A stretch of DNA of 38,106 nt from the NCBI GenBank assembly GCA_026025795.1, contig JAPEUG010000141.1, positions 1 to 38,106 of the forward strand, read 5' to 3'. The number at the start of each line of letters is the position of its first letter. Position 1 is the first letter of the stretch. The DNA is from Thelocarpon superellum (Eukaryota). Shown here in pieces: positions 9,176 to 38,106 of this stretch. A program made the translations under genes and the position numbers. The notes beneath the pieces were generated by a model, which saw only the letters and a list, made by a program, of their open reading frames with translations, was not told the DNA's origin and did not search any database.

Positions 9176-9352
9176 CCGTGTCGTCTGGCACGCCACATGC
9201 TACCGATCTGCTGAAATGTAGCACGACCACGACGCTAATGTCTCTCTTTTTCATTCGGTTTACGCGATGGGATCCTCATTCGCCATGTCGACGGCAGATG
9301 CGTGCGGCTTGAAATCGACCTGATTTACGGGATCGCGGATTTAGCTGGCCAA

Positions 9353-9388
9353 CATTTCGGTCGGCATCTCGGTCGGCATTTCCGTCGG
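9353..9388. repeat. 12-bp tandem repeat x3 (CATYTCSGTCGG)
   Basis: catttcggtcgg / catctcggtcgg / catttccgtcgg read directly. Confidence 0.8.
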
Positions 9389-9924
9389 CACCTAACCCCT
9401 CGGCATCTCGGCGGCGCCAGCGCGACCTCTCGGCTTTCTGTTCCCGGATCACCTTCTCTCGGACTGACTCGGGCGATGTGAGGAGTCCTTAATACTGCCA
9501 GGGGGTCGTGAGTCATCTGTGAGGTGGTTCACGAAAGACTGGAGAGGAGGAAGGGGGGGTGGAGGGATGGAGGGAAGGAGGAGGGCAGGAAAGCAGAGCC
9601 AAGCGTACTTACTCGTCTTCTGTTTGACGTTCTTCCGTCGCTTCGTTGGTGTTGACCCTAGTGCGACTGGACTTTGACATCTTGGCGTTGTTGTCTTTTG
9701 TTTTCTTTCTTTTCTCATTCCCGCAGTGAATACCCTTCACCGCACTGCACCGCGCAGCGCTGCGCAACTCCGGTCCCGCCTCCCAGGTCCCTTCACCTGT
9801 CTATCCACCCCACCCTTGTGCGTTCTCTACGCCTCAAGACTCTGTCACCAGTACATATGTTTGACTGTTTCCTTTCTGTCTCTGTCTCTGTCTCTGTCAT
9901 TGGCACTGTCGATTTCGATGTCTA

Positions 9925-9972
9925 TCTTGATCTCTTGATCTCTTGATCTCTTGATCTCTTGATCTCTTGATC
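9925..9972. repeat. Perfect 8-bp tandem repeat (TCTTGATC)x6
   Basis: Six exact copies read directly, preceded by a short (TCTCTG)n tract at about 9875-9898. Confidence 0.95.
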
Positions 9973-10400
9973 CACCGGACAGAAATGGCTAGGTAGGAGA
10001 GAGAGAGTAGGAGATACGGCCGTTCGACAGACGCAGTTTCCGTCTCAGTTGCGCAGGTACTTAGATTTCTAGTTCCAGTTCGGCAGACTTGGCAATCGAA
10101 TGTGAAGGTGAATGCACGTCGACTGGAGATGCACCGTACGTGTTTCACGCCCCTTGTCTGACCAACCATCGTAGTACGACCGCTGCATGTCTGCCCACAA
10201 GACTTTACGAGGGCTCGACCAGCTGTTCCGTAAGTTGCCGATTAGCCTCTCTTCTTCTGAAATGAACCGGCCTCTCCCGTGCGGAATAGAACAGAACAGA
10301 ACATTACTGACTGACTGATGACGGATGAGAGACGAGAGACAAGAGGTGCAAGATGAAAAGGGCGGGTATAGGAATTGTGGTATAGTTATGCGGGATAGAA

Positions 10401-13201
10401 TCAAGTAGCAATAACACCACCACCGTTCTCTACCCTTGCCCTCTCTTTCTCCTTTTCCTTTGTACTCGTATTCGTCTTCGCCTTGCTGGCCTTGTTGGCC
10501 TTGTCGGCCTGTGCTTTGCTCGACTCCTTTTCCCTGCCCTTGTCCTTGTCCTTGTCCTTTTCTTTCTTAGATCCTGCTGATGTGGGTGTCGTCGTCGTTG
10601 CTGCTACTGACGTAGGGGCGGCCGTGGCCGTGGTATTGGAAGAAGAAGAAGATGAAGGAGGAGGTGGAGGGGGAGAGACAACATCAGAGATGCTAGACCG
10701 GCTGCTGCGGTGGTCCTTGTCCCGACGTCCTTTTCCGCGTCCTGCCGCGTGTCCGCCTTGCCCCAGCTGTCCTTGTCCCTTTCCCGGTCCCTGCCCCTGG
10801 GCTGCATTTACGCCTGTGCCCGTGCCGGTGTTGATGTGCGGTAATGTCTGATTACTATGTCCTGTCATCGCCGTTGGATGTGAGGGCGACGTGATGGTCG
10901 TTGTGTGGTTGAGGCTGTTGTTGATGTCGGTGGTGGTGGTGGTGGTAGTGTACGCGGTGGAGTTGGAATTAGAATTAGAGACCGTGGCGGCGGTGATGGT
11001 GGAGGAGGAAGATGTAGAGGGTGGAATGGGCGGTTTATTGCCCTTGTTGGAGTTGGATTTGGAGCCGGCGCTGGAGCTGTGGCTGACGTCCGCTGCTTTG
11101 CCCTGGGAGAAATCCTTCCATTTTCGCCACCCGTCAAAGTCAATCAAGGCTTGCATGCATCCCCATTCCATTACCTTGCTCTCTAGCCAGACGAAGTTGA
11201 CGGGCTGATTGGACGCGAGGTCAGTTGCTTGCTTTGATATCCAAAGGAAAGAGAGCAAAGCGGAGTGAGGGTTGTACCTTGGTCAAAAAGTCGTTGCATC
11301 CCGCTGCCAACGCCTCATGTCGATCGCTCTGTAAGGAGGAGGCCGTGAGGGCGACGATGATGACGGGCGACTTGAACAGCACGGTATTAGGCAGTTTGTC
11401 GTCCCCTTCTGGCTCGAGGCTTGCTGATTCCGGCGCCGACGAGGAAGCCGATGAGGAAAAGACCCCGATGGAATTCAGACGCTCCAGTCGTCGAATCTCC
11501 TTGGTGGCGTCCAGCCCGTTCATCACCGGAAGTTGAATGTCCATCAAGACCAGGTGGAAGCCCCCCGCGCGCCATTTCGTCACCGCTTCCCGCCCGTTCA
11601 TCGCCGTCTGCCATCGCACCTTGAGCCGCTTCATAAAGGCCTCGAGGAGCTTCAGGTTGATGATGTTGTCCTCGACGATGAGCACGTTGATCGGCGGTAC
11701 CGCTCCTTCCAACAGACCGGCCGGCAGGTGGGGCGGCTCCGCAATCTTCTTCGCCTTCCGCGCCTGTCGAGGTCGGGGTGATGCCGTTCGTGCCGGAGGC
11801 GTCCCGGCTTTGTGAGCCGTTTCAGCCAATGGCGGCGTGGGCAAGGGCGGTGGTCCTGGGGGCACTACGTACAGATTAGCGAAAGCTCTACAAAGCAAAG
11901 CCAGCGTCGTTACCCTGAGTCATCGTGCTCGGTGCTCCGTTGAGGATCGGCGGTGACGTGGTGTGTGTCCGACCCATACGGGGTCGGCCGCTGTGACGAG
12001 GCCCTCGCAGGCCCGGCGATGGAAGCGACGGGACTTGTCCCGTGCTGATGACCGCGATCGAGTGCACTGGGGGATGATGCGAGCCTTGAGAGGTGCCGTG
12101 CGTGGCCACCGACGCCGACGGCAGATGAGGGGAGCCGATGGCAGGCATGGGCGGAAAGTAGTCGCCGCCTTCCCCTGGTCGGGGCTCGTCGGGGTAATAG
12201 GCGGTGTGATGGCCGGCGCGCGGAGATGCCTTGGGGGTGCGCTTGGTCGGCACGTCAATGACCAAGGCTTCATCCACCGTCTGTCCGCCAGGATAGTACG
12301 AGTCCAAGGTACGCCCGATGGATTCCTCGGGTCCGAGCACGCGTTGTCCTTCTCGTGAATGTCGCTGCATCGACTCGCGCGTGACGATACATAGCATCAC
12401 GTCCGGCGCATCGAAACATCGGCCCAGGGAATTGGCATACTTGGACAAGATCTTATCTCGCACGTCGTCCACCAGGTCGTCGTCGTGGATTGGCACCAGC
12501 GTCGCCGACGCGCCGGGCCGCTTGACCCAGATCTTGCGGGTCGCCATGTGGGGCAGACGACCGTCGTATCCTGGGGACGCTACATTCACCCCGAGGATGG
12601 ATTGGATGGCACCCGCCTCCGAGGCGGCGACCAGGGATTGATGTCGGCGGATGGGTCGAGGGTGAGGGTGGAGCAATGGAGCGTCTGCCGGGCACAAGGT
12701 CGGAGGGAGCGTGGCCTTCGGGCGCTCTATCGGGGAGGAAGGTGAGACCGCTGCAAGGATGGAGGTGGAGAGGACTGGCGGAGAGTCACTGGCGATCGGT
12801 AGGTCTGCAATGGCCCGTGGCGGGGATGCAGCAGAGGGTATCGACGATCCATGGAGCTGGAGGCGTGGAGGAGTGATCGCTAGCGGACGTTGGCCGGCGT
12901 GTCTTGTGCCTTCGCTTGGCCCCGGCGCGCCGGGCGTGGCGACGGCGTCATCCCTGCCGTCGTCGTTTACCCTGGTGGAATGGGTACTTTGGGACATCAG
13001 ATCATCTTCGGACTTCCTCGGCCGGCGGCGGTGCGTCAAGGGAAGGATGTTCACAGACTCCTCTCGTGGCAAAGGTGAGGATGCGTCGTGATCAGAAGGG
13101 CCATATGCTCCGGAAGCTGAGCTGCCCCTGGGAGAGTTGGCAGCTGGCCAAGGTAGAAACCTGGCACAGGCATTGGTGAGCCTTGTCCTCAGCTCACCCA
13201 T
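10401..13201 (-). CDS. SSK1: Two-component response regulator Ssk1/SskA (HOG pathway)
   Basis: RKIWVKRPGASATLV N-terminal domain and receiver domain PPINVLIVEDNIIN..FHLVLMDIQLPVMNG..PVIIVALTASS..GCNDFLTK-PV, followed by EWGCMQALIDFDGWRKWK. Introns 11865..11913 and 11205..11277. First in-frame ATG is 13201 (the track's 13231 is TTG). Confidence 0.95.
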
Positions 13202-31215: not shown

Positions 31216-32219
31216 ATGTCTAGACAGAACGCCTACTTCTTACCGGGCGAGGGCATCGCTCGTGAGGTCATCACCGCGGACATTTGTCGCTACCTTGGCA
31301 ATAATGCCCTCGTCAAGCCGGCCGTCCATGAGGTTCGCCCGTCCTCATACCAGCCTCGGCCTCGGCCTCGTCGCCTACTGACTGGAACAGGGAGTACACG
31401 GGTTCACCATCACGGCCTATCGTGCCCTCACCGCGGTACGTGTGGTCGAAGCGTCCCGTCTCGCTCCGTCTCGTCGCGTCCGGCCCTCGGTCGTGCGTAT
31501 CGCGACGCTGATGCTAACGGTACCCGTCGCAGGACATGATCGCCGATCTGAAATCAGATTCCGCCAACTGGCGAAGCGAAAGAAATCTGGCTCTCTCCTC
31601 GCGCAATGGAGCAGGTAGACCTGACCGTGCTGCCGAGACCCGTGGCAGTCCTGACGTCCCTTCAGTGCCTTACTCTGATTCCAAGACGCATCAGCGGAGG
31701 CAGTACTTTGGGCCCACGGAGGCCCAGACTCCCCAACAGGAACCGGCCAACCCGGCCCAGTACCCAGGCCACGGGACGCTGCCTCCGTCGGATCAAAATG
31801 TCCCGTATGGCCCCCACTCGGGCGCGGGCGGCTATAATCCCCAGGAGTCCCCTGCAGGTTATCCACCCAACTGGCAGTACCCTAATACCACGGCCGACTT
31901 CCAGGACGAGCAGTATAGTCACCACATCAACCTGGAGCCGGAAGAGAACCGTAATGTGCCGCGGAATGCCGTCAACGAAGCCGCCTACCCCAATCAGCAG
32001 GCTGGTCCAGACCGTCAGGGCTATCCGCCCCAGGGCTACCCGCCCCAGGGCTATCCGCCCCAGGGCTATCCACCACAGGGCTATCCGCCCCAGGGCTACT
32101 CGTCTCGGCAATCCAATCCTCCACACTTACCCCATGGACAACAATATCCACCACCACGGGAGCCGTATGGTTCACAACGGGAGCCGTACGGTGGCCGTGG
32201 CGATCATTATCGCCGGTGA
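31216..32219 (+). CDS. rfeG: RfeG-family putative transcriptional regulator
   Basis: MSRQNAYFLPGEGIAREVITADICRYLGNNALVKP..-GFTITAYRALT-DMIADLKSDSANW matches the conserved RfeG N-terminal domain as I recall it, followed by a P/Q/Y/G-rich tail. Introns 31333..31390 and 31436..31532. A further terminal intron at 32216 cannot be excluded. Confidence 0.82.
32016..32099 (+). repeat. Coding 15-bp tandem repeat (QGYPP)x5.6
   Basis: CAGGGCTAYCCRCCM units at 32016, 32031, 32046, 32061, 32076 and a partial copy at 32091. Confidence 0.95.
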
Positions 32220-34206
32220 ACATCCATTTCCATGGCCTTGGGTGAAGCAAGCCTTGCTCCCACCAGACTGCTCCTTGGCCCCATTCGAACTGCTGGCCCT
32301 CGAGGAATCCACCTGGATGCCGTCGTGGAGTGCCCGATACCTCTCAACTCATTTTGACCATCTGCACTTTCCTCATCTTATCTCTGTACCCGTGCTCTCT
32401 ACCCTCGCTCGTAACTCTGGTCCTATCCTGTTCCGGAATTCTTCTTGATGGATCGGCTCAAGGTTTATTCCCACTCACCCCGCCTGCGGCTGCGGCTACC
32501 AGAAATGGCCACGCTGTCAGTCCCGCGCGGTCTCCCTCCATCGATCCGGACCATTTGGACATCCCGCCGACTTGGCACCTGACTCGGCCGCCATATCCCT
32601 GCCACAAATACCGTCGGTCCACTGTACTGCGAGACTGGACTCACTCTTCCGGCGGCGACCGTTCATACGGTCCGCCGCTGATAATTTACGCCATGGATGT
32701 GTGACGAATTTCCTTGTTCTTCCCTTCGGTGTCGTATGGTCGTGTTCCGGGAGAACCTAGTTCGCCGTGAAGATGGCCTATGACCTGGAACTACTCCTTT
32801 CAAGGCCTCTCCGATGGACCCGCTCCCAATTTGTTTCTGCGCTTGCCACTAGGCTGGATCCCAATCCTCTTTCCATCCGGCTGTTCCGACCCCTTGGGTA
32901 CTATCCTCCACCGAGTGGTCTGAGTGTCCATGCCGTATGGTCGCATCCCTGGAGTTCAGTGCCATCTGATGTCGGCGCCGGTCTGAATTCTAGACGAGAT
33001 GGTTGGCCTGCGTTCGTCCGGAGGCCGGCAGTAGGGTGGATTTAGTTACGGCCGGTTGGAGGTCTGAGTTGATTTGAGCAGATACGGACTTTTTGTCGCG
33101 CCATCCGTTGTCTCTCTTCGTCCGGATTGTCTGGGTTGGTCTTTCTTTTCGCACAGACGCATGTGTGGGTGTAATTGTCTCATCATCTCGGAACAAGTAT
33201 ACGTCAATTCATCGTCCACCATCCATCATCCTTGGTTCATGGTCCACCGCCACGGTCCTCACACGCCAACAGCTGTCTTCGTAAGCGATACCGGTGGTGG
33301 CGACGCCACCCCATCACGATGGATCCGCCGTCACGGTAATCATATCGTATCTACCATGGCTGCTGCGTTCGACCCACCCGTTCTTGACGAGTGATGCGTA
33401 TATTACAGCGGACCCAAGCTCGTATCGCTTGACGATGGATGGCAGTAGGGCCGCGTACGAATCCACGAATCCCACTTCGTCCATCGACCGATGCCCGTTA
33501 CTTTCCCTTTGCTTGCACTGTGCGCTTGCCGTCCCCGGACCTTATCAGGTCGCCACGTCCGCCTGAACTCATTAGTAATGGCCACGGTGATCACGACGCG
33601 AAATCTGAAGATGAAGTCCGATGGTTTGAGAATGCTGGTGGGATTTTTCATGCTAGCTAATCGTACAGGCCCGCCGGAGTTTTTCCCCCCGCTTTTCCGT
33701 CTCTGTTCCCGTCTACCTGCCAAAGAAAAGAGGCGAGAAGGAAAAAAGACATGGCGTCGCCGCGCCGCTCCAGCTCCAAGAACTTCCGAGTGCCCAATGT
33801 CCACCGCCGAGCTTGCTCAAAGTAGGTACAAGATGAACCAAGAAAGAAAAGAACACTTTCCCGCCAGAGTCGTACAGGGGCATCATCGCCGCCGGCGCTT
33901 GGCCGCCACATTCGTTAGTTACTTACATGCTCAGTCCCCGAGTTCGCCCCAAGAACCATTGCTAGCCGAGGACGAATCTCGGACTGGCGCTGGCTCCACA
34001 CCAAGGCCTCGCCTTGGCTCATCGGGCTGTGCTCGATGGTCCGAATGCTCGTGATCAGCAGAAGAGGGCGGAGCCGCCCCTTCTTCACACGAACACCAGC
34101 AAGGGAGACGTTCTGGCTCATCGAGGGAGCCGCGGGCTCCCTCTCACCGTTGAACAGAGCGAGGAAGGCTCGGGACCAGTTGCGAGGCGCCGAGGCGCCT
34201 CGCAAC

Positions 34207-36843
34207 CTACCCGAGCATCCTCCTCTCGATCCCCGCCCATCGCTCGACCACCCACGCCGTCTGGGCAACCCAGACGGGCGGGCGGTCGGGCAGCCCGTCC
34301 ACCCACGCGAAGCCCACCAGCACGAGGAGGGCGAGGATCATCATCGCCAGCGCGAGCAGCCACCAGTCTGCTCGCGCGGGCTCCGACCCGCCATCCGCCT
34401 GCGTGGCGGCTTCCACGTAGCCAAGGCTCGCCACGCGGGCGACCTCGGGCTCGAGGGCTGCCACGGGAGCGGCAGACTCTGGCCCAAGGTCCGCCTGCGT
34501 GGCGGCCTCGGCATAGACGTGGCTGTGCCCCGCCTGCACAGCCACGTCTCGCGACTCATATCCCTCCCCTTTGGTGCCGCTCGCCGGCTCGCCAAAGGGG
34601 GCGGAGGACATGGCCCACTCCGCGTGGAGACGGTTCAGGGCCCGCTCGGCCCCGTCCCGCTCCGCCGCTCGAACCGCGGAGTCGAAGCTCCGGTCCTTGC
34701 TGGCCAGCTCCGCCTCGAGCTCACCGATCTGCTCGCACAAGGCGGCAACTCGGTCGCTCTCGGTGGAGACGCTGGCCAGCTCCTCCGAGAGCCGGACGTT
34801 GTCTGCTCGCACTGAGCGGACGCGGTCCTCGGTCTCTCGGAGGCGGACCTCCAGCGACGACGCCTTGGCCTCGAGGTTACGCCGCCCGGTCTCGCGACCG
34901 TCAGCGCCCTCACGGGCAGCGCGAGCTGCCCGCTCCGCCGCCTCCACGCGTGACTGAAGGCTCTCTGCATGCTGCAGAGCCTCCTTCAGTCGTAGCGCGG
35001 AGGAGGCGGCCCCCTCCTCCACCGCAGCGAGCCGGGCCCCCTCGAGGGCAGCCGCGGCGCGCTCTCGCTCCACCTCTTCCTGCAGCGTCCGGTTGGACGC
35101 CTGCAGATCCCGGAAGGAGGCACTCAGTGCCTCCTTCTCCGACGTGGCCCGCGCCACGTCGGCCTCCCACTCCTCCCCCCGCCCCTGATGGGCCTCCTTC
35201 ATGGCCCGAATCTCCTGCTCAAGGCAGGCGATCCGGGCCCCGGCGGCTTCTTGAACTGCGAGGAGACGGGACGCCGCCGCGTCCCGCTCCATCGCCGTGG
35301 AGGCGGCCGCCTCCTGCGCGGAGGCGGCCGCCTCTTGCACGGCCCGCAGTTCAAGCTTCGCCGAGGCGAGCTGCGCCGCCTCTTCCGACGGTCCCGTGCT
35401 TAGCACGGGCGCGTCTTGGAGACGGCGCACCTCCGCCTCGGCGGTGGCGAGGCTCGTCGTGAGCCGCGCCTCCTCGTTCCGCCAGAGCTCTTGCTCATGG
35501 CGGAACGAGGTTCGGAGGCCGCTGGTGGTGGTGTCCAGCGCCTCCTGGAACTTCTGCTGGTAGCCGTCCGCGACGGCTTTCTGGTCGGCGATCTCTTTCT
35601 GCAGACGCGCCACCGTGTTGATGGCGTTCTGCTGGTCGCCCGCGAGCTGCTGTCGCTCAGCGGATAGTCGCTCGATCTCCGCGAGCATGCGTCGGTTCTC
35701 TGCCGGGTGGTCGACCATGGCGCGTTTCTTCTCCTCCACCAACTCGGCGTTGATGGCGGCCAGCCGGGTCTTCTCGTCCTTCATCTGGTTGTACTGGCCG
35801 ATGATGCCAGTGCGCTCGTTGGTCAGCCGGGTGGTCACCTCGAGAGATTGTTGGAGCGCATTGCTTAGCCGCTGCTGCTCCTCCGGCCGCTCGGCGATGA
35901 ATTGCTCGTGGAGGCGGTGGATCTGATGTCGCTCGAGCGACACCCGGGATAACTCGGCCACGAGTCGTTGGCACTCCACGTGTTCCAGGTCTTTCTCTTG
36001 TCGCGCCCGGCTCAGGTCGGCTTTGATCTTATCGTGTCGCTTGTGCCACTCGACGGCGGCCTGCACCTGCTTGTTGGCGGATGCCTCCCACTTCTTGGCG
36101 TTTTGCGTCTGCTCCGCGACGAGCGCTTCCGTGTGCTTGAGCGAGGCGGTGGCCTCGTCCAGGGCCGTGGTCGCCTTCTGCACTTGCTTCTCCAGTTCTT
36201 CGTTCGATGTCTTGAGGGCGTTGATCTGCGCCGCGGCCTTCTTGTTGGTCAGCTTGGCCTTGCTCTCCTCTTTCACGCGCTCAAGATCTTTGCCCATGAG
36301 CTCCAGCTTCTCAGCAAATCGTGTCAACTGGAGCTGGGAGTCTTCGAGGTGTGCCTCCTGTCGTCGCACGAGGTCGTTCTTCTCCGCTAGCTCCGCCTGG
36401 AGCTGCTTGAAGGCGCCCTCGGGTTGTTTGAAAAAGGTGCGCTCCTTGTAGAGTGCCGCTCGCGTCTCGTCAAGAAGGATTTCTTGCTCGGCAATCTTCT
36501 CCTCAAGTCCTTGTGTCATGACTTCGTGCTCGATGCGATAGATCGCCTCCATCTCCTTCATCCGGTTGGAGATCTCAACCACACGTTCGGCGTCGGTGGT
36601 GGCGATCAGGTCGCCGAAGATGTCTTCCGCGGGGACGGATGTGTTATAGAGTGACGGGACCCGAGCGTCGGTCGGCATGTCGTCGTCGTCATTGTCGGCG
36701 GATCCGCTCGCCTCGGCCGTGTTGCTTGTGTTGCTCGCGCCGGTAAAGCTCTCGGCAGTCTCTCCGAACTCGATGGATCGGGGCCCTCGCTCGGCCGCTC
36801 GCTGGGCGAACTTCTTGCCCACTTTCGCCTTGGGTCGAACCAT
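34207..36843 (-). CDS. 878-aa long coiled-coil protein with a single C-terminal transmembrane anchor, family unassigned
   Basis: Uninterrupted ORF with E/A/K/R/Q/L-rich heptad composition over most of its length, hydrophobic WWLLALAMMILALLVLVGFAWV near the end, and a ~31-aa tail. Confidence 0.85.
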   Translation of the reverse strand: MVRPKAKVGKKFAQRAAERGPRSIEFGETAESFTGASNTSNTAEASGSADNDDDDMPTDARVPSLYNTSVPAEDIFGDLIATTDAERVVEISNRMKEMEAIYRIEHEVMTQGLEEKIAEQEILLDETRAALYKERTFFKQPEGAFKQLQAELAEKNDLVRRQEAHLEDSQLQLTRFAEKLELMGKDLERVKEESKAKLTNKKAAAQINALKTSNEELEKQVQKATTALDEATASLKHTEALVAEQTQNAKKWEASANKQVQAAVEWHKRHDKIKADLSRARQEKDLEHVECQRLVAELSRVSLERHQIHRLHEQFIAERPEEQQRLSNALQQSLEVTTRLTNERTGIIGQYNQMKDEKTRLAAINAELVEEKKRAMVDHPAENRRMLAEIERLSAERQQLAGDQQNAINTVARLQKEIADQKAVADGYQQKFQEALDTTTSGLRTSFRHEQELWRNEEARLTTSLATAEAEVRRLQDAPVLSTGPSEEAAQLASAKLELRAVQEAAASAQEAAASTAMERDAAASRLLAVQEAAGARIACLEQEIRAMKEAHQGRGEEWEADVARATSEKEALSASFRDLQASNRTLQEEVERERAAAALEGARLAAVEEGAASSALRLKEALQHAESLQSRVEAAERAARAAREGADGRETGRRNLEAKASSLEVRLRETEDRVRSVRADNVRLSEELASVSTESDRVAALCEQIGELEAELASKDRSFDSAVRAAERDGAERALNRLHAEWAMSSAPFGEPASGTKGEGYESRDVAVQAGHSHVYAEAATQADLGPESAAPVAALEPEVARVASLGYVEAATQADGGSEPARADWWLLALAMMILALLVLVGFAWVDGLPDRPPVWVAQTAWVVERWAGIERRMLG

Positions 36844-36849
36844 CTGCTC

Positions 36850-37026
36850 GGAAGGACCCCACGAATGGGGTTTGGGACCTTGAGATTTGTCTGCTCAAGG
36901 GGAGAGGGGGGGAAAGGAAGGACTCCACGAATGGAGATAGGGACCTTGAGATTTGTCTGCTCAAGGGTAGATCAGGAAGGACCCCAGCTCGTGCTGGGGT
37001 TTATGGACCTCGAGATAGTATCGAGG
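36850..37026. repeat. Three ~60-66-bp tandem units, each carrying two hairpins
   Basis: Units start GGAAGGA at 36850, 36916 and 36975. Each has a tetraloop stem followed by a CCTYGA..TCRAGG stem. Confidence 0.9.
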
Positions 37027-37309
37027 GTAGAAGGGTTGGTGTTGCTCTCGCAGTCCGGGTGGAAGGCTTGGCGTGCCACAGCGTCAAGAAGACGACGCGT
37101 TGGCAGAAAGCGATCTGAATGGTGCGAATAATCTCGTTCGAGGTAACCTTCTTCCGCTAGGATCGAGACTTCGAGTAGCTTGCTGTTGATCTACGTGAGC
37201 ATCGACTTGGAATGGGAACTGGTCAGGCAGGATCTCTTACCAGGGTCATGCGTCTGCTTTGTCTCGTCCGGCTACTTCTCTAGTCGTCAATGTGCAAAAG
37301 AATCTCGGG

Positions 37310-37396
37310 GAGGACAGATCTCGATCGAGGAAAGGATCTTGGTTGAAGGAAGATCTCGGTCAAGGAAAGATCTCGGTCGAGGGAAGGATCTCGGTA
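37310..37396. repeat. Degenerate 17-18-bp tandem repeat x5 (approx. GAGGAAAGATCTCGGTC)
   Basis: gaggacagatctcgatc / gaggaaaggatcttggtt / gaaggaagatctcggtc / aaggaaagatctcggtc / gagggaaggatctcggta. Confidence 0.85.
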
Positions 37397-37539
37397 AAGC
37401 GAAGAAGCGGATTCGAACAAGTCCTCGATGGAAGAAAGAATCAATGTCGATCACGTTGAAGAGGAACTATCGAACGTTCTGAAGTGGTGGGTAGCTCAGC
37501 GTCGGAGACGGGCGTTGTTCAGAAGGCTCGATGGTGGAA

Positions 37540-37587
37540 AAAGAGAAGAAGAAGAAGAGAGTGGGCGAGAGGAACAAAGCTTTTATG
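37540..37587 (-). promoter_or_regulatory. Candidate core promoter of the coiled-coil gene (CATAAAA plus CT-rich tract)
   Basis: The minus strand reads CATAAAA (37587-37581) followed by CTCTTCTTCTTCTTCTCTTTTTCC, a typical filamentous-fungal start-region layout. Confidence 0.4.
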
Positions 37588-38106
37588 TTGTTGTGGGCGT
37601 GCGATTTCTTTGTCTAGCAGGGCATAACAAGCAAGAACACACGCGTAACACTCGAGGCCTTAACCACAGCAACCGTTGCATCTCCAATTCACCCTCTCCG
37701 CAACACCGACTAGCTCTCTTCTCACTTGTGGCCAAGTGAGGAGAACACCCTCGACATCGTGAATGCCTGGCAATCCCAAGGACTTCATCGCAACGCAAAG
37801 GGCTTCACACGGCTTTCCATTCCCAATCGGGAACACATCTCCATCCATTGGCTCTGGGACGCCACGATACATTGATGAGGCATGGCTGCACTTGAGCAAA
37901 ACGCATTCAACAGGCGCCAAAACCCACCAAGTTCAACGTCTTTCTCGGTTTTCGATAGCCGCGAAAAGCTCCCGTTGAGTACCTTCACCACGCCGCTGCC
38001 CATTCCCGTCGCCCGGCCTGGCCTGGATCAAGGGTGACACGGGGCTCTTTCATCATCATCGAGAGCACCAGCATGGCGATCTTTTCACTTGGCTCCTTCC
38101 ACTTGG

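Follow-up and report, generated by a model that had tools for sequence, protein, structure and literature searches.

The window analysed here, 38,106 nt in length with a GC content of 52-70%, is the whole of a contig. Among its genes are those for a DNA polymerase eta with a UBZ finger, a WD40 protein and an RRM protein, a content from which the contig appears to be nuclear and eukaryotic. No protein in the collection exceeded 65% identity to the polymerase eta; its named matches included Thelocarpon impressellum (64%) and Sarea resinae (62%), and the best ones belonged to lichen-forming and other Pezizomycotina. Since identity does not exceed this level and the best named matches are Pezizomycotina, the host would appear to be a poorly sampled filamentous ascomycete of this group. 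Near-identical DNA is present in runs labelled moss metagenome. Dense micro- and minisatellites occupy positions 9350-10660 (for example, six copies of TCTTGATC at 9925-9972 and 3.2 copies of a 12-mer at 9353-9390), and the intergenic DNA of this genome is repeat-prone. A 15-nt tandem repeat (CAGGGCTATCCGCCC, 5.5 copies, 32016-32098) lies inside the open reading frames (ORFs) at 31536-32448 on the plus strand, which gave no Pfam match and whose product is probably a Gln/Gly/Tyr/Pro-rich repeat protein.

The feature studied here adjoins an ORF of 878 codons on the minus strand (34207-36843), the ATG of which reads CAT at 36841-36843. The predicted product is rich in Ala, Glu and Leu, with a coiled-coil character and a hydrophobic C-terminal segment. 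The GC content at third codon positions (GC3) is 0.825 over the ORF and 0.80 in its first 300 nt, compared with 0.67-0.74 in neighbouring genes and 0.475 in the 360 nt upstream. With a threshold for homologues of E 0.001 or better in both protein searches, a word-indexed search returned one hit, the protein itself, among 7998 scored candidates, and an exhaustive search of 1.84 billion representatives likewise returned the protein itself as its one hit. Pfam gave sub-threshold hits only. A protein atlas returned generic coiled-coil look-alikes with scores of at most 0.90, among which a golgin-like row at 0.87 is a lead only. On these searches, the ORF appears to be a lineage-specific (orphan) gene. 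A 482-codon ORF lies antisense within it (34014-35462, plus strand), probably as an artefact of GC content, and a 21-nt repeat is found at 35299-35342, in the same GC-rich part of the 878-codon ORF.

Directly upstream of this gene, three related units are arranged head to tail over 36850-37033, and all begin with GGAAGGAC on the plus strand. The array is placed on the minus strand, the sense strand of the gene; hairpin sequences are given below as read on the plus strand. Unit 1 (36850-36915, 66 nt) carries hairpin A at 36856-36871 (ACCCCA-CGAA-TGGGGT) and hairpin B at 36878-36900 (CCTTGAG-9 nt-CTCAAGG), followed by a spacer (36901-36915) that is G-rich on the plus strand and C/T-rich on the sense strand. 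Unit 2 (36916-36974, 59 nt) carries a hairpin A of 5 bp at 36923-36936 (CTCCA-CGAA-TGGAG) and, at 36944-36966, a hairpin B with the same arms and loop length as in unit 1. In unit 3 (36975-37033, 59 nt), hairpin A (36981-37000, ACCCCAGC-TCGT-GCTGGGGT) has 8 bp and a different and longer loop region, and hairpin B (37008-37026, CCTCGA-7 nt-TCGAGG) has 6 bp and a different loop. The array is separated from the start codon by 6 nt (36844-36849, minus strand); read directly, the context of the ATG has C at -3 and G at +4. All the hairpin coordinates given by an earlier reading made from the sequence only agreed with the sequence, as did its placing of the array 6 nt before the ATG at 36843 and its observation of TTCG, in minus-strand reading, as the A loop of units 1 and 2.

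The repeat search recovered the shared 12-mer at the unit starts three times, spaced by 66 and 59 nt, and aligned units 1 and 2 with 91% identity over 56 nt (36850-36905 and 36916-36971). The 26-mer containing hairpin B occurred twice, compared with no occurrence in 100 shuffles. None of the 57 rows that TRF returned for the 38 kb covers the array, presumably because unit 3 contains indels. A fourth, decayed unit had been spotted by eye at about 37062-37095; the covariance model of units 1 and 2 does not recover it, and it was discarded.

The array is non-coding. A coding repeat was ruled out by the 59-nt length of two units, which is not a multiple of three, by an in-frame stop 20 codons upstream of the ATG and by the lack of GC3 bias. 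An intron covering the array and ending at the CAG that precedes the ATG is unlikely, judged from a single donor-like site (37642) and the finding of no branch-like motif near the acceptor. The sense strand is free of ATG for 359 nt, the nearest upstream ATG having its A at 37202, and the interval 36844-37201 (minus strand) is accordingly a candidate 5' leader; an ATG-free stretch of 360 nt precedes 1.7% of window positions, a figure that becomes less impressive once the repeats, which shorten the independent length, are discounted. The array stands 7-190 nt from the ATG, and fungal leaders typically span this range. From this position, we infer that the array is more likely to be transcribed than to lie upstream of the start site. 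C/T-rich tracts often precede transcription starts in filamentous fungi; such a tract is present on the sense strand between units 1 and 2 (36896-36921), and it could mark a start site inside the array. No tRNA or tmRNA was found in 36000-38106. At the end of the contig, an ATG-initiated frame noted by eye on the plus strand (38074-38106) runs past the last nucleotide; it may be the start of a divergent neighbour, in which case 36844-38073 would be a shared intergenic region.

About 0.55 kb upstream of the ORF is composed of related short repeats. In 36844-37500, the motif TC[AG]AGG occurs seven times, compared with 0.76 expected by length, and GGAAGGA four times, compared with 0.19. A second tandem array, to which no strand was assigned, lies at 37311-37404 and consists of five copies of a 17-nt unit (consensus AGGAAAGATCTCGGTCG); the motifs GGAAGGA, GATCTCG and TCRAGG occur both there and in the double-hairpin units. 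Of its small CTCG..CGAG palindromes, those of units a and d are intact, whereas units b, c and e carry decayed copies; direct reading of units b and c showed decay by C>T and G>A changes that were not compensated. An inverted-repeat search of 36700-37500 (seed 7, minimum 10, so that shorter arms are undetectable) returned a single 11-nt pair, 37321-37331 with 37422-37432, outside the double-hairpin array.

The distribution of the unit was examined with a covariance model (R1) built from units 1 and 2 alone, which scored 89.8 and 89.1 bits, respectively. R1 recovered unit 3 with 34.1 bits and E 2.8e-9. Over the 38 kb, 29 matches were obtained at E up to 10, of which the three below 0.1 were the units themselves; the next match had E 0.13. 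Similarly, blastn-short gave 27 rows, six of them inside the array and the other 21 of at most 14 nt with E of at least 1.3. In run X1, the likely source, eight records match 36100-37600, and only one of these (record 6, 1468 nt, no differences) spans the array. The array-spanning unitig of this run had a depth of 149.5, compared with 148.6-188.8 in the flanking unitigs, and no second copy of the array was found at a likeness of at least 85% among the X1 contig records that passed the filter. These results speak for a single-copy locus, the filter on X1 omitting some records. Among metagenome contigs from near-identical strains, those of runs X2 and X3 end at 36865 and one of X4 covers 36963-37204, so that no contig of these runs bridges the array; about 87 of its 184 positions are covered in X2-X4 with no differences, which is uninformative at a contig divergence of about 0.4-0.9%, and the gap in the middle of the array carries no meaning of its own.

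No relative was found in the wider collections. A DNA pattern representing one unit gave no match in metagenome contigs, prokaryote genomes or viral contigs, collections from which this fungus and its close kin may simply be missing. A looser pattern of the three unit starts matched at least 115 loci, which were rejected as unrelated: among the matches listed, the best R1 score was 18.3 bits, the R1 alignments showed just the flank that the pattern had selected, and none had both hairpins. At gathering score, Rfam gave no match in the whole window, hammerhead and other small structured RNAs being included in the search; in E-value mode over 36600-37600 it gave two chance-level rows, both mammalian lncRNA models, which scored 19.2 bits (cut-off 45) and 14.1 bits (cut-off 80). 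A literature search returned no matching paper. In conclusion, the array is private to this locus, having no other copy in the contig or, at a likeness of at least 85%, in the X1 contigs, and it matches no known RNA family. The sequence-only reading had called for a covariance-model search, which found only the units of the array in the window, and had recognized no known family and no hammerhead core, with which the Rfam result agrees.

Perfect hairpins (stems of at least 6 bp, loops of 3-10 nt) were scanned in the whole window and in 20 local shuffles, and 149 were found in the 38,106 nt compared with a mean of 89 in the shuffles. Their density is highest at 34000-35500, a segment of 68-70% GC within the 878-codon ORF that holds 48 of the 149. 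The array (177 nt) contains five separate stems of this kind, compared with about 0.7 expected, hairpin A of unit 2 having only 5 bp. As the units are copies of one another, the independent event is a single two-hairpin unit; the presence of two hairpins in one unit of about 60 nt has roughly P 0.02, by our own arithmetic from the density scan, which makes it unusual by chance, not extreme. Folding of 216 nt of the sense strand gave -61.6 kcal/mol (z -3.87, none of 200 shuffles as good), with all six hairpins present in the minimum free energy structure, compared with z -2.27 for the plus strand, where 7 of 200 shuffles were as good. Individual sense-strand hairpins had energies of -8.9 (A) and -8.3 (B) kcal/mol in unit 1, -5.1 and -8.3 in unit 2, and -15.8 and -7.9 in unit 3. 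All six were slightly more stable on the plus (antisense) strand than on the sense strand.

Paired changes were counted over 13 model pairs on the model-fitted alignment of the three units, all of them paralogous at one locus. Two of the 13 pairs changed on both sides: a C:G to U:A change in hairpin A of unit 2, and a U:A to C:G change in hairpin B of unit 3. One outer pair was broken in unit 2 and one pair was gone in unit 3, and 97.4% of alignment cells pair. No G-U pair occurs among the 13 core pairs, hence no strand is marked. In the shuffle control, 52 of 500 shuffles attained the observed covariation; with three sequences this control is weak in both directions, and chance remains compatible with the result. 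The compensatory changes described in the sequence-only reading are real, though few (2 of 13 pairs).

The two events were also considered under a simulation of uniform, independent substitutions. At least one compensated pair was obtained with a probability of 0.03-0.055 between units 1 and 2 (five differences in 56 positions) and of 0.05-0.10 between units 1 and 3 (five differences in 41 non-loop positions). Both events jointly have a probability of about 0.001-0.005, by our own multiplication and for uniform substitutions, all these values being optimistic since the locus was chosen after the fact. The joint event being unlikely under uniform substitution, some process that respects pairing would have acted, selection being one candidate. 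Both paired changes are transitions between C:G and T:A on both arms, and that in hairpin B falls on the CpG of CCTCGAGG; by our own reasoning, decay of mirrored CpGs would give a compensated outcome half the time.

Between units 1 and 2, three differences fall in the 26 stem positions and two in the 30 others (17 flank or linker and 13 loop), so the stems are no better preserved than the flanks. Between units 3 and 1, both loops differ as much as shuffled loops do (edit distances of 6 and 6; means for shuffled loops, 7.0 and 6.15) and have changed in length, whereas outside the loops 36 of 41 positions agree (Fisher P 1e-4, treating positions as independent). Stems under constraint with loops free to change typically look like this, although just two complex events could have produced it instead; the replacement of the loops of unit 3 with retention of the non-loop positions is the strongest point for constraint. 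The spacing of the half-sites shifted as well, from 4 to 8 nt in hairpin A and from 11 to 7 nt between 6-nt arms in hairpin B, which speaks against a rigid site bound by a DNA-binding dimer and favours a hairpin, either in RNA or in extruded DNA. The claim of the sequence-only reading that pairing was preserved while the sequence diverged is supported by the proportion of paired cells and by the non-loop positions kept beside replaced loops. Of its inference of a structured RNA module, the pairing and the lack of a family match are supported; a selected module would have to be read from three paralogous copies.

We consider, with a probability of about 0.5, that the array is a young, locus-private minisatellite, its unit being a palindrome-bearing part of an orphan gene's leader, and that any structural effect on scanning is modest at most and dependent on copy number. 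A piece of leader or promoter of 59-66 nt would already have carried two short inverted repeats, and its duplication head to tail would have produced the three units. If the array lies in the transcribed 5' leader, as its position suggests, the mRNA could form up to six local hairpins of -5 to -16 kcal/mol, the last of which would end 12 nt ahead of the AUG. These hairpins may modestly slow the scanning 40S subunit, so that the number of units would tune protein output. In yeast reporters, translation is inhibited by stable stem-loops and by a leader that is predicted to contain several moderate stem-loops (PMC11722282).

In this minisatellite explanation, recency, transition-biased or CpG mutation, or template switching would account for the pairing-preserving changes with greater likelihood than long-term selection on an RNA fold. 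The step from paired changes to a selected RNA is weakened because the changes are transitions, one at a CpG, because palindromes in the second array decayed without compensation, because template switching is available as a source of such changes and because the locus was chosen post hoc. Repeat-induced point mutation (RIP) is known to act on far longer repeats than this one and was set aside as a source of transitions. In quasi-palindromes, template switching during replication creates, extends and repairs stems in single events (PMC8794818). The two G-C pairs by which hairpin A is longer in unit 3 would be explained likewise. The sequence-only reading had itself set template-switch correction of quasi-palindromes against its RNA inference; such correction would yield the same paired pattern, as would biased transitions.

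A selected, modular RNA element of the 5' UTR, in which each unit provides two hairpins and single-stranded tracts and acts as a multivalent protein site or a tuned scanning barrier, is possible, though we regard it as unlikely. The tracts in question are conserved on the sense strand (GGUCC after each hairpin and CCUUCC at the unit end). Two compensated pairs, jointly improbable under uniform substitutions, agree with such an element, as do the replaced and resized loops beside stems and flanks that are identical at 36 of 41 positions, a change of half-site spacing that a hairpin would tolerate and a rigid DNA-bound dimer would not, the better fold z-score of the sense strand (-3.87 compared with -2.27) and a leader without ATG for 359 nt. 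Against it, there are just three paralogous copies, and 52 of 500 shuffles reach their covariation; the core pairs include no G-U and every hairpin is slightly more stable antisense; hairpin A of unit 2 is weak (-5.1 kcal/mol); and neither Rfam nor the collections searched yielded a relative. The loop sequences are not conserved, which argues against loop-specific recognition. The extra-stable UUCG tetraloop requires a C-G closing pair; in units 1 and 2 the pair that closes the sense-strand UUCG loop is A-U, and unit 3 has an ACGA loop. A more specific version, in which the array is a lineage-private modular RNA device with selected stems, not loops, and the conserved tracts, serving as a multivalent platform for an RNA-binding protein that controls how the mRNA for a tail-anchored coiled-coil protein is translated or where it is placed, is quite improbable. 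In that case a regulatory RNA would have originated de novo, through tandem duplication, alongside the orphan gene. We regard as distinctly unlikely that the repeat acts at the DNA level, its palindromes binding promoter factors or forming cruciforms and its copy number tuning transcription. Tandem copy number reportedly tunes transcription in a study of yeast promoter repeats, and the perfect Watson-Crick symmetry of the hairpins is strand-neutral, as for sites in double-stranded DNA. The same half-site-like motifs are enriched throughout the 0.55 kb upstream. On the other side, the second array has not maintained its palindromes, half-site spacing varies between units, which is unusual for one dimeric factor, and with its distance of 7-190 nt from the ATG the array would more probably be transcribed than lie upstream of the start site. 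Each arm of hairpin A has a match to SYGGRG, which we take to be the CreA/Mig1 consensus, giving four sites in the array. This motif is common (251 sites on both strands of the 38 kb, or about 1.2 expected per 184 nt) and the four sites are copies of one another, so that CreA-type binding was retained as a lead only.

The remaining explanation, a remnant or end of a mobile element (a MITE, subterminal transposon repeats or a nuclear analogue of the mitochondrial double-hairpin elements), was the other alternative raised by the sequence-only reading, and it now appears hardly credible. The contig ends 1.07 kb past the array, and assemblies often break at repeats. Against this, the window holds no second copy on either strand, the X1 unitig that spans the array is at single-copy depth with no other X1 contig at least 85% alike, and the metagenome, prokaryote-genome and viral collections gave no match. 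The copies are in tandem instead of dispersed, in a nuclear setting with merely 50-56% GC. The two adjacent hairpins of each unit do resemble double-hairpin elements as described in PMC10085805.

The significance of the locus depends on which of these explanations holds. What is established is a local repeat with six palindromes; a selected RNA module is compatible with the array and goes beyond what the array by itself establishes. If this is a mere local minisatellite, as we favour, it is of little import, one more case of repeat-driven variation in the leader of a fungal gene. It also carries a caution: a handful of paralogous quasi-palindromes with paired changes is no proof of a functional RNA, since the same picture arises from template switching and from transitions at mirrored CpGs. 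Were the stems selected, one would see here what is rarely seen, a structured leader module that emerged through duplication beside a lineage-new gene.

Among known systems, inhibitory stem-loops of eukaryotic 5' UTRs act as barriers to scanning, and Ded1-dependent leaders are among them. The array would resemble these in placing local hairpins between cap and AUG, provided that it is transcribed. Its hairpins, of 5-8 bp and -5 to -16 kcal/mol, are far weaker than the 20-bp stem tested in PMC11722282. The closest named look-alikes are the double-hairpin elements (DHEs) of chytrids and Schizosaccharomyces, which PMC10085805 describes as mitochondrial GC-rich islands (windows above 75% GC), dispersed and possibly mobile. 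Like the array unit, a DHE is small and non-coding and can fold as a pair of neighbouring hairpins (PMC10085805), and this shape is the only common ground: in contrast to DHEs as characterized there, the array is nuclear, tandem and confined to a single locus, with a unit GC content of 0.50-0.56, so that the likeness fails on compartment, dispersal and GC content. Quasi-palindrome correction (PMC8794818) produces multi-base or compensatory changes in one event, of which the paired transitions and the extra G-C pairs of unit 3 would be examples; being a mechanism of mutation, it is not a class of element. Gene-proximal fungal minisatellites, including tandem repeats of promoters and 5' leaders, provide the remaining comparison. 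The unit described here differs from theirs in being long (59-66 nt), in having two inverted repeats per copy and in its two paired changes. It resembles them in being a short non-coding unit repeated head to tail directly upstream of a gene and private to its locus, in lying in a repeat-prone intergenic setting, and in a copy number that would be expected to affect expression.
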